DNA from: Eledone cirrhosa
Lineage: Eukaryota
Assembly (NCBI GenBank): GCA_964016885.1
Contig: OZ024742.1
Location: forward strand, 62,310,001 to 62,374,000
Direction of reading: 5' to 3'
DNA: 64,000 nucleotides
Position 1 is the stretch's first letter. Each line of letters starts with the position of its first letter. Below, one piece after another: positions 318-62,257 of this stretch. The translations under genes were made by a program, and so were the position numbers. The notes under the pieces were generated by a model. That model made no database searches. It was not told the DNA's origin and was given only the letters and a program-made list of their open reading frames with translations.

Positions 318-1545
318 ATATCGAACGTTAATAATAACGTTCGATTCGTTTCTAAACAAACGGCCCGATTTGAAGGTGTGCCTTGTCGGTAACTGATCGT
401 CACCTGTTTGTTCAACACTACTATATATTTTCAACCGTTCAACAGACTGGCAGAGTTATACAGTCCTGATGAAGGGTAATGACCCAGAAACATGTTGATT
501 GTTGCTCAAAGCCAGTGTAGAAGAAACAGGTGACGATCGGTCACCGACACGGCACAGCTTCAAATCGGGCCGTTTTCTTACAAACGAATCGAACATTATT
601 AATGTTCGATATAGCTCATAAGGACTAAACATAAGATAGGGAAAGCCACCTCATGGTACGACAACCAAAGATACCAGAGTATCATGTTCGTGGATGCTAC
701 CCCTGGACGGAAATTTTCTAATCAATTTAGAAAGGCTCCAAGAAAGACCCACTTAAAGATTAAAGTGGTAGAAAAGTCAGGAACTACCATAAAATCCCCG
801 ATCAGCAAAACATACCCCTTTAAGAAAACCCACTGTACTAATAAGAAATGTTTTATATGTAAAGTAAACCCCGCAGATAAACTGCAAAACTAGAAATGTA
901 GTCTATAGTATAAGATGTACAGAGGGTACTTGCAGAAATATGAAAACGACATACATAGGCGGGACAGCTCGAAGCATAGGAGAAAGAATAGACCAACACT
1001 GGGGGGATTTAAAAGGAAAAAATAAAAACGGTTCAGTACTCTACGAACACGCTAGACAACAACATGACGGTAACATAGACAACATAGAAATTAAAATAAT
1101 ATCTAAATATAGAAATGACCTAACAGGTAGGTAAATCAGAGAAGCGTGCGAAATAGAGTTTAGAAAGCCAAAGCTAAACAGAAAAATGAATGGAATAAGA
1201 CCAACAACATTACCCAAACAAACAATACTGACTTAAGAGAAATATAAATAAATAAATAAATAAATATATACACAAGCACAATAACAACAAACACATATAA
1301 ACACACTAATAAACAAAGATAGAATACAAAAATCATAAAAACACACACCCAAACGCGAACACACACACCAAACACTATACACACACGCAAACGCATGCGC
1401 AGAGACGGAGACAAAAATAAATAAATAAATAAATAAAATAAAAATGGCGTAGTCATTACAATACAATACAATACAGTAGGGGGAAACATGATAATAGTAC
1501 CACTGATGAGGTTGCAGATGTGCAACGGAAGAACTTTGTTAGACT
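318..1545 (+). mobile_element. Degenerate Penelope-like element fragment: inverted pLTR arms (318-419 / 514-613), GIY-YIG endonuclease remnant, 3' region; copies at ~5042-6262 and ~58273-59495
   Basis: Reads FVDATPG..KVVEKSG..C..C, VVYSIRC, YIGGTARSIGERIDQH, SVLYEHARQQH and REA.EI..KPKLN, with stops and frameshifts. This is a Penelope-type GIY-YIG C-terminus. Confidence 0.85.
460..502 (+). ncRNA. Minimal type I hammerhead ribozyme motif (family H1); copies at 5184-5226, 21499-21541, 58415-58457; decayed relative at 24018-24060
   Basis: ACAGTC-CTGATGA-a-GGGT aatg ACCC-a-GAAA-CATG-TT-GATTGT. Stems I and II pair, stem III is short and palindromic, and the cleavage triplet is GUU. Confidence 0.8.
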
Positions 1546-1757
1546 ATATATATATATATATTTATATCTGTATTTTTGACCGTTGTTCAGTCAATGATAA
1601 ACATTGATAGCCAAATGAATTAACTATACAGACATAAAGGATGCAGAAGCCAAAACCAACCAAACAGTGAGTGTGTTCTGTTATTATTTCTGGCAATAGT
1701 ATTATAACGATATAACCCTCCCCAAGTATAACAATATCTATATATATATATATATAT

Positions 1758-59800: not shown

Positions 59801-62257
59801 ATCGCTGCTTTCACCCTTAACGGGATCTTCTGAAACTAACAAAGTCAATCTGTAAACGCAGAAGTGGATATTTCAAAAAACGTTGCAACCGGAGGAATAC
59901 AGGAAGACGATACTTTGGTTCGTGGAAACGTTCGCTGGCAAAGAACGGAAAAAAAACGAATATAATTCGTCATTAATAGGAGCGGTGAAAAACAATTACG
60001 CGCAAAGACAGAACGACGTTTATGGTATAAAAGAGGTCGTAGACTAATGTTCGCTTAGGTGGTTCATAGAGACGTTCTCTGGCTATGAACGAAAAAAACG
60101 AAGATAATACGTCATATGTGGAGCGTGGAGAACAATAGCACGCAAAGACAAAACCTCGTAAATGGTATAGCAGAAATCGTAGACTAAAATTCTAACTAGG
60201 AGACCGAATGAATCTCCGCTACAGAGTTAAGAATAAAGTAAATAAATACAATACAGAAGTAATAGAAATAAATAAATACATACACGCAGACAAATACGTA
60301 CATACACAAGCATACGCAAAACACTTACTATAGGTATACAAAACCACGCACATATAAATATGTGTGTGTGTCTATGCGTGTATACAAATAAATAAATAAT
60401 TATATAAACGTATATAAATAAATAAATACGTATATAACAAGCGCACACACATACCTACATGTAAATACACGAATGTTCGGAGACGTAAGTCAACCAAAAC
60501 ATGAAGTACACATATACACACACCTACATACGTACGAACCTGCATACTCACACAGACGCAAAACTCCCGTATACACATAGCCAAACTATATGTACCAGAA
60601 TATATAAAATTATACGCCATAACATAAACAATCAAATATACGTACGAGAAGGTATGCGTACCTTCACAAAACATACGGGTAAAATATACTTACCTATGCA
60701 AATAAGTAATGGTATAAACAAAACATATACTTAGCTCCCACATCAAGACGTAAAATATCCACGTATAAATCGTACTATCCGTTAGGATATAAAGTGCGGC
60801 TGTAATACAGGAAAGTTTTGTGCAATTTATGTTTACAAGCCGAAATTGCCTCAGATTTTTTGTTTAAGATGTGGTCTGTGGCTTTGAGTATTTTTCCAGT
60901 GCCTCGGCGGTGCAGAGGTCACATGGTCTTTTATTTCCGTTATACGATCTAGCCCTAGCTAGGATCTCCCAGTGTAACTTATATTGGGTGTGGTTGTCTT
61001 TTAGACTCCAGATATAAGCTGAAAGTGACGTCATATTCCTTCTTAGAGGGTAACGAAAAGAATGGGTATGCATGTAAAGACGCTGCTTGAATCTATTGGC
61101 GGTTAACCCTATGTAGGCCCTACGGGACGTGGGTGTTACAACCTTACATTTGTAGACAATGTTACTAGAGAGGCATTTCCCGGATAGAGGGCAATCAACC
61201 CGATTCCTACAATTACAGTTAGTACTAACTACATGTGTATACATACATACATACTTAGTGTATACATACATACATACATATACATGCATGTGATTGGTGC
61301 CTGACGGCGAGTAGGCTGATTGCTATAAAGCGCAGCCGAATACTGCCTAAAGTGTTGTTACTCAACCATACGAGAGTATATAAAATATATAGGTTTACCT
61401 ATACATAAACTAGACGGAGCCATATATATATATATATATATATATATATATATATATATATATATATATATATATATATATATATATATATTCACGGTGT
61501 GGCTCAATGATGAATTAATTAATTAAATAATCAACAATCAGAGCAGTATATAAGAAAGTAAGTCCATAGAATCATTTGATAAAATATATTCAGTATTTCT
61601 CCTCCCAATCAGCTTTCTGACTTGACCACTGGCCATGTGACAATTCTTAGCCATTTTGAATTCGTTTCTGGCGGGGATCATTTAAGAAATATCTTTGTCC
61701 AATTGAGTTTGTTTCCTGATGATTTCGAAACTCGTGAATTTATCCATGATCGGATATTTCCAAAAAGCGAATGAAACCTGATGGGGTAGAAACATAATTT
61801 TGGTATGTTTTTGTACATTTTTTCTTCTAACTTTGATTTTGTACCTAATTGTGTATGGTTGGCTATATGTCTAATCAATTTCTACGGGCTATTAGAAATA
61901 CTGGGTACATTTTCTGTGGCTGTTGATCGCGGATAAAATAGCTATCATTTATTTATCTAGTGTTTCTTCATAGGTACATTTTAAACTTATAGCCTCCTTT
62001 AATTGATTTTGTGTGGTTAATTATGCTGATTGGGAGGATAAATACTGTATATATTTGATCAAATAATTCTATTGACTTACTTTCTTATATATCAATATAT
62101 ATATATAGTAATAATAATAAATTTGAAAACTAATAATAAATAATATATTTCAGAAGATCCCGTTAAGGGTGAAAGCGGCGATTCTTTTCTTAAACTTTAA
62201 TCTGTTATTTATATATATATATATATATATATATACGTTTGTTCGTGTGTATTTCAG

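Follow-up and report, generated by a model that had tools for sequence, protein, structure and literature searches.

Hammerhead motifs from Penelope-like elements in the Eledone cirrhosa genome, and a coding family with a fixed U4A core

A stretch of 64,000 bases from Eledone cirrhosa (contig OZ024742.1 of assembly GCA_964016885.1, positions 62,310,001 to 62,374,000; below, the window) carries 36 hammerhead copies that belong to 12 type I families, here named Ha and H1 to H11, as found by a search made family by family. These motifs very probably stem from the pseudo-long terminal repeats (pLTRs) of many families of Penelope-like elements (PLEs), mostly similar to those of the Hydra clade, and their abundance is likely to follow from copying that begins a short way downstream of the ribozyme and in most cases ends soon. 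One of the coding families, H5, has A instead of U at core position 4 (U4A).

The excess over chance is seen with two descriptors. The strict one requires a perfect core and helices I to III and was applied to both strands of the window, where it gives 12 matches; the mean is 0.03 in 100 dinucleotide shuffles of the whole window and 0.06 in 100 shuffles made in 500-base blocks, with a maximum of one. When one core change is tolerated and the arms are allowed to be longer (relaxed descriptor, threshold score at least 9), the window has 17 matches, while 668 shuffles have a mean of 0.10 and a maximum of two. Equal density in shuffled sequence, the outcome that an earlier sequence-only reading of the window had set against its own claim, is therefore not observed. 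In a spaced sample of 79 stretches of 10 kb (790 kb), taken at round-number positions on many chromosomes of the 3.0-Gb assembly, there are 68 matches, 59 of them with perfect core, against one to three in five shuffles. The 360 matches from all loci examined (overlaps kept) form 44 clusters, 29 of which are present in the spaced sample, so that the diversity proposed by the same reading extends over the genome; a few weak clusters are likely to be false matches.

The other computational check suggested there came out negative: an Rfam scan of the window at E values up to 1 gave 123 matches, all of them microsatellite and hairpin microRNA noise and none a hammerhead family, and a scan of three element loci at E values up to 10 gave no hammerhead family either. 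Folding energies are ordinary (z from -1.9 to +0.6 for 12 motifs), which means that the hammerhead signal resides in core and helix geometry, not in stability. Unremarkable energies, the silence of Rfam and a few low-scoring, probably false clusters would all fit chance matches in AT-rich, repetitive DNA, but that idea is already refuted by the shuffles of both window and sample, and since reversed versions of all five whole-genome patterns have zero matches it can be set aside with near certainty.

The core CUGANGA, GAAA and UH, the three-helix junction and an open helix I are present in intact copies of 11 of the 12 families. Stems differ between families while core and pairing are kept, as the sequence-only reading had maintained: when distinct helix II inserts were collected without any pairing rule, 51 of 56 closed a helix, compared with 29% of their shuffles. 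Its remark that some families share stem I also stands, the common helix I being TTTTAT. Of 38 family representatives, 23 have a helix III that is fully self-complementary, a form for which dimer cleavage is proposed in PMC4209133, whereas in H5, H9, H10 and H4 helix III is closed and a partner would not be needed. Protein identity between families is 35-77%, two close pairs excepted, yet the core is kept. Single damaged copies are many, several of them in the window, as would be expected of passengers.

The link to PLEs is most direct where hammerheads flank a single frame with reverse transcriptase (RT) and GIY-YIG endonuclease, an arrangement found for H2, H5 and H7. At locus L315, 690-base direct repeats (98% identical), each with an H2 motif, flank a frame of 775 residues, and at L317 H2 accompanies an 821-residue RT/GIY-YIG frame. 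H5 lies in both direct repeats at L142 and L331, with frames of 696 and 645 residues, and the order is the same in the two loci: a repeat with H5, the RT/GIY-YIG frame, which begins about 150 bases beyond the cleavage site, then a 3' region, the second H5 repeat and (TA)n. With the GIY-YIG remnant at 7520-7978 of the window as query, a protein search returned many close copies, most of them with H5 about 900 bases downstream. TTTTGT relatives of H2 bracket similar frames in L318-L321, H9 stands upstream of a Hydra-like frame in L323, and H7 stands at either end of the window's decayed element (28286-32489). H6 and H11 follow a different endonuclease with a CX4CxxC linker, called Neptune-like from that motif alone. 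The coding link is thus firm for H2, H5, H7, H9, H6 and H11, and the Penelope-derived origin put forward by the sequence-only reading is borne out for these families.

The Hydra-like proteins have RWR or RWT/RWI (RW[KR]-like), DKT, and CxCX5C in the forms CNCRNRVDC and CNCRIKNKC, and the elements have (TA)n flanks; RW-type, DKT and CxCX5C motifs are given as Hydra-clade features in section 11 of PMC8557442. Among 7,999 candidates scored, 731 are homologues of these proteins at E values of at most 1e-20. A Pfam search with the full Hydra-like frames returned no family. The protein tree has 20 rows, with two short fragments omitted, and its row H10_L326 is an H9-type frame: a link between H10 and the open frame of L326 had been considered and was dropped, as (TA)n lies between the two and the frame is of H9 type.

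Most copies are short 5'-truncated pieces, often in mirror pairs, and their ends, counted from the cleavage site, point to how they may have been made. Only the 3' ends are taken from the first end analysis; for the 5' ends that analysis was confounded by shared mirror arms, and they were analysed again against long natural copies. The 3' ends are bimodal, in H5 with 39 of 72 at +18 to +37 and 33 at +50 to +54, in H2 with 20 of 26 at +32 to +52 and 6 at +132 to +139. The two classes thus lie near +25 and at +54 or more in H5, and near +43 and +134 in H2. In divergent mirror pairs the long 3' end, which by this analysis is the PLE tail, occurs on exactly one arm in 47 of 54 H5 pairs (in five on neither arm, in two on both) and in 10 of 12 H2 pairs. 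Of the H10 5' ends, obtained with a query that was downstream only, 18 of 29 lie between -38 and -49, where helix I has its 5' edge, five are shorter and six longer; for H2, 11 of 25 fall at -119 to -125, at a CATATG palindrome. Such clusters may mark candidate RNA 5' ends, RT stalling or joining at palindromes. A pile-up of H10 5' ends at the cleavage site itself, sought as a sign of cleaved templates, was not found, with 1 of 29 copies beginning there. Copies thus run through the site, and from this follows that the templates were likely uncleaved or rejoined.

These ends can be accommodated by a scheme in which the element protein would cut both target strands and one complementary DNA would be primed from each of two internal start sites on a template that is intact across the cleavage site. 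Both products would break off soon, in many cases where the ribozyme has its 5' edge or where a short palindrome lies, and then be joined head to head. The tail was traced to two internal RT start sites, and the element found to cut and extend both target strands, in the experiments described in PMC11167929. Because the ribozyme lies directly upstream of the start sites, it will be part of nearly every copy, and hence the excess of non-coding copies. In the active lineages, selection for cleavage would have preserved the canonical cores, most genomic copies being passengers. The U4A core of H5 would cleave weakly or not at all, and the family would have spread anyway.

How many such motifs the genome holds was estimated in two ways. 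The spaced sample gives a mean of 5.5 motifs per 64 kb, or one per about 12 kb, and its bootstrap a genome total of about 178,000-345,000. Exact patterns searched in the whole genome give 78,926 for the TTTTRT superfamily (H2, H7, H8 and relatives) and at least 17,367 for H10 with intact core; these two and the H5 pattern sum to 115,852, which is a floor for the census. For the TTTTRT superfamily the sample predicts about 83,000, in agreement with the exact count. Every family searched has many dispersed copies.

Several points weigh against the account given so far. Placement in the Hydra clade is by motifs and not by a tree with named references, because Pfam does not recognise the Hydra-like frames. 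The coding link is weak for H1, Ha and H8, is by resemblance only for H3, and is absent for H4 and H10. The one-tail rule is broken in 7 of 54 H5 pairs and 2 of 12 H2 pairs, and some of the pairs stem from loci that overlap. Had the template been a rejoined circle, the cleavage site in the DNA would be just as intact. For H10 the sample, with 13 matches in 790 kb, leads to an estimate of about 49,000, well above the exact 17,367, and the genome total is therefore rough and perhaps somewhat high.

H4 and H10, being without coding link, also bear on another explanation, namely that non-autonomous retrozymes account for most motifs. These are short tandem units whose transcripts would be cleaved to monomers, made circular and put back into the genome by PLE proteins. 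Retrozymes are a class on record (as described in PMC7229834 and bioRxiv 10.64898/2026.07.22.740005), and direct non-coding tandems do exist here, with units of about 790-800 bases for H4 (three units in L322, one of them scored), about 510-540 bases for H9 and about 470 bases for an AATATTG family. The largest families, however, the TTTTRT superfamily and H5, are ends of coding elements, the H9 tandem units directly precede a PLE frame, the commonest arrangement is the divergent mirror pair and not the tandem array, and the 5' ends cluster near -45 (H10) or -124 (H2), places that a circle would not define. For most of the motifs a retrozyme origin is accordingly improbable, although H4, and perhaps H10, may be candidates for separate non-autonomous elements. 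Much of the population is non-coding, as the sequence-only reading had it, in the sense that the copies are; as separate elements it is not, since most of those tested are ends of coding families that were truncated. Hammerhead-bearing units in direct tandem, about 470-800 bases long, are seen at L322, L028:5595-6106, L276 and L280 and are themselves candidate retrozymes.

The same reading had described the motifs as packed into 64 kb, from which one might take the window to be a special cluster, selected for some local ribozyme function. The 17 scored matches are to be compared with the mean of 5.5 per 64 kb, and the bootstrap probability of 17 or more is 0.002. A quarter of the window (16,046 bases), however, consists of later copies of local duplications, and when duplicated sequence is masked 11 of the 17 matches are left; per 64 kb, the probability is 0.10 for 10 or more and 0.04 for 12 or more. 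Moreover, the 70 kb flanking the window hold nine matches, single 10-kb samples elsewhere hold up to four or five, many window copies are damaged (C3A, G8A, GGAA), and dispersed copies of each searched family are numerous. Selection of this locus is hence hard to credit. The density, about two to three times the genome mean, is inflated by duplication, and the window is a moderately rich piece of a genome full of hammerhead motifs. The duplications are large, recent (95-98% identical), and both direct and inverted; they occupy 1-10778, 40417-45448 and 55627-64000 of the window and extend past it (G000:C3:62404609-62408061 and 62306202-62309486).

Consider now H5, which is otherwise of the usual Hydra layout. 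Exact whole-genome counts are 19,559 with A at position 4 against 206 with T, G or C, all 12 H5 copies in the spaced sample have A4, and this sample suggests a copy number of about 45,000. Among the Hydra-like families, H2, H7 and H9 have the canonical core and H5 has not; the hammerhead is described as universal in the Hydra clade in PMC8557442, and every Hydra row of its File S2 has a CTGA core. No second hammerhead core was found on either strand of L142 or L331. A canonical-core subfamily of H5 was also looked for: a looser search gave 899 matches, and all 12 inspected CTGAAGA loci were mirror junctions without helix I, so the candidate was rejected. Recurrent H5 mirror junctions (L333-L344; hundreds genome-wide) form CTGAAGA by chance.

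Since PMC9901934 reports little activity when the CUGA turn carries a single change, weak or no cleavage is predicted for the A4 core, and is more likely than full activity. It is conceivable, although we stop short of calling it the probable state of affairs, that H5 is a natural ribozyme knockout: a coding PLE with tens of thousands of copies, whose two repeats both have a U4A hammerhead predicted to be dead or almost so, in a genome where Rfam fails to see about a quarter of a million hammerheads. PLEs would then be able to spread in vivo with no need for cleavage, and the ribozyme would be a rider on the one stretch that is always copied. The opposite explanation is that A4 is a fully working natural variant, compensated by the closed helix III or aided by the element protein. 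The remaining core positions and the three helices are intact, and there are abundant H5 variants at CpG and at stem or loop positions; yet a recent loss would likewise spare the other core letters. The text of PMC3088659 lists U3-A8, C6, insertions, U15.1-A16.1 and U4C as core variants, and the U4C viroid reported there stays viable, while the anole PLE hammerhead of PMC11167929 needs its protein in order to cleave. Other motifs here also have C or A at position 4, each with few copies. Against these stand the poorly active CUGA-turn changes of PMC9901934, and a fully working A4 core appears rather doubtful.

The other motifs with A or C at position 4 are at L047:4366-4449, L092:6391-6475, L157:3041-3087, L106:5153-5230 and L044:874-919, some of them with long AT-rich helix III and C17. 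In sequencing runs labelled organisms B and C position 4 is unchanged; these runs have low depth and possible carry-over and were not used. In the window, at 6586-6615, A-to-G differences on the sense strand of the element are commoner in run X4 than in run X1 (3.5% against 0.13% at 6593), and RNA editing is a possibility; the kind of run is unrecorded and the sample differs.

The system is of a known kind, and a hammerhead-bearing Hydra element of Octopus has already been described. Hydra-clade PLEs as presented by Craig et al. 2021 (PMC8557442), among them Hydra-1_Obim of Octopus bimaculoides, share with the present elements the RT with C-terminal GIY-YIG, DKT, CxCX5C, (TA)n targets, hammerheads in the pLTRs, many of them of the form CTGANGAT...TGAA, inverted 5' copies and a one-sided tail. 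They differ in that many lineages coexist here with more than 100,000 hammerhead copies, and in that H5 has CAGA where the File S2 rows have CTGA. Comparison by eye shows no match between the hammerhead of Hydra-1_Obim and any of the 12 window families; the protein likeness was also judged by eye. The metazoan minimal or PLE hammerheads of Cervera and de la Pena 2014 (PMC4209133) are alike in their type I topology, an additional base behind A9, palindromic helix III, a large number of consensus families within each genome, a predominance of single motifs left by truncated PLEs, and opposite-strand pairs 100-700 bases apart. The counts given there are about 2,000-9,000 per genome and the core variant is U3-A8, not A4, while in several of the present families the helix II arms are long or helix III is closed.

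The non-LTR retrozymes of PMC7229834 and bioRxiv 10.64898/2026.07.22.740005 also have type I hammerheads in short repeats, some tandem, with very high copy number, whereas the copies in this genome are for the most part scattered, being truncated ends of coding PLEs or mirror pairs of such elements. The axolotl, with a genome about ten times larger, has 126,247 motifs according to these sources, the largest count among the papers compared, which the present census approaches (at the floor of 115,852) or exceeds (by the estimated range); for giant squid, PMC6962438 gives 235 Rfam hammerheads. In Poseidon of Anolis (Frangieh et al. 2024, PMC11167929) RT likewise starts at two internal sites that lie downstream of the hammerhead, the target is cut and extended on both strands, and uncleaved RNA serves as template. 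That work concerns one element in vitro, while here the evidence is read from genomic copies of other clades, one family of which has a natural core change.

What is added to the known system is its scale, the blindness of Rfam, by which standard annotation overlooks these motifs altogether, the one-tail rule in mirror pairs, by which genomic copies support a coupled priming on two strands, and a successful coding family in which a non-canonical core is fixed. The much smaller genome of Schistosoma mansoni has hammerheads in the tens of thousands, so the present density may not be a record. The U4A variant is apparently new to the literature: a search on octopus and cephalopod hammerheads and on U4A gave no comparable census and no report of A4, although Lunse et al. 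(small PLE variants) or Nelson and Uhlenbeck (core mutants) may contain an earlier one of A4. The function of PLE hammerheads is called unclear in PMC8557442, where it is said that they may simply parasitise PLEs, and cleavage was unnecessary in vitro in the work of PMC11167929. With canonical-core sister lineages beside a very successful family with fixed U4A, a single genome offers a natural comparison, and the role of these hammerheads is therefore directly testable.

The individual copies in the window are as follows, with strands as plus or minus. All nine places at which the sequence-only reading had cited a motif do carry one (the copies that start at 460, 1992, 8450, 8893, 23349, 31728, 37709, 55125 and 56651), and the last copy ends at 62196. 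Its count of about nine families and over 20 motifs was too low; Ha, H11 and H10 had been missed. Ha (30-75, minus) has a GACCGTC helix I, a perfect core and a palindromic helix III, and is duplicated at 4734-4779 and 58073-58118. H1 (460-502, plus) lies inside a partly inverted unit (310-620), with duplicates at 5184-5226 and 58415-58457 and a separate damaged copy at 21499-21541. There follows the broken GIY-YIG end of a Neptune-like PLE (615-1176, plus; Pfam GIY-YIG E value 5.5e-5 over 892-1134; duplicates at 5339-5899 and 58570-59131), and about 320 bases 3' of this remnant a damaged H11 copy (1498-1543, plus; duplicates at 6216-6261 and 59449-59494) with GGAA where its relatives have GAAA. 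The H2 mirror pair (1758-2100; arms 1796-1866, minus, and 1992-2062, plus) has a CATATG palindrome at the joint and represents the terminal repeat of a coding Hydra-like family.

H5 (6571-6621, minus; U4A core CAGAAGA) marks the 3' end of a truncated Hydra-like PLE, with (TA)n about 25 bases on. Further copies are on the minus strand at 2265-2315, 4260-4293, 40527-40576, 43007-43055, 57595-57628 and 59787-59837, and on the plus strand at 8893-8945, the place where a variant core had been read and where it is indeed CAGAAGA, at 45375-45424 and at 62148-62196. The GIY-YIG end of the H5-family frame (7553-7984, minus) is 85% identical to the full-length copy L142 and is duplicated at 43981-44412 (plus) and 60801-61232 (minus). 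A 140-base tandem duplication at 2394-2668 and in its copies belongs to the 3' region of the H5 element, directly upstream of the ribozyme. H4 (8450-8534, plus) has a 50-base helix II arm and lies in a short unit (8287-8831) with 67-base inverted ends; its duplicates at 43451-43535 (minus) and 61710-61794 (plus) likewise have no firm coding link.

Between the arms of the H6 mirror pair (22698-23500; arms 22801-22843, minus, with C3A, and 23349-23391, plus) there is a Neptune-like GIY-YIG remnant (23152-23292, minus). The decayed full-length Hydra-like PLE at 28286-32489 (minus) has direct repeats at 28286-29088 and 31680-32489 (93% identical), each with one H7 (28329-28400, with G8A, and 31728-31798, minus), and RT and endonuclease remnants at 29862-31508. 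H8 (37709-37769, plus) is a solo copy of the TTTTAT superfamily with damaged helix II. This copy and, by a helix III mismatch, the H7 at 31728 are scored by neither descriptor, and both have intact relatives elsewhere in the genome. The H9 mirror pair (54513-55372; arms 54710-54778, minus, with a helix III insertion, and 55125-55204, plus) belongs to the family linked to the Hydra-like frame of L323. The H3 mirror pair (56474-56742) has arms at 56501-56570 (minus) and 56651-56710 (plus) and a duplicate at 3861-3930 (minus), and the H10 copy (56939-56989, plus) has G8A.

The window has other contents as well. An open frame of 873 residues (16893-19514, minus) encodes RT (Pfam RVT_1, E value 7.5e-23) with a C-terminal zinc-binding and restriction-like endonuclease region; it is a near-intact non-LTR retrotransposon, which we take to be of the R4/Dong or NeSL type. 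Pieces resembling exons of a host gene with PAN domain (E value 2.2e-6) occur at 47355-47708, 51148-51486, 9040-9200, 62250-62430 and 42720-42950, and one exon of this gene is carried inside the duplicated blocks. Remnants of broken long interspersed nuclear elements (RT and apurinic/apyrimidinic (AP) endonuclease) and of DDE transposases are at 13682-16660, 21831-22465, 27255-28300, 34700-35362 and 46793-47233. A dispersed short repeat with a tRNA-like head and at least 10 copies, some in mirror pairs, is likely a short interspersed nuclear element, and is seen at 4381-4571, 11970-12089, 37087-37277, 38435-38693, 39391-39608, 48319-48477 and 57716-57915.

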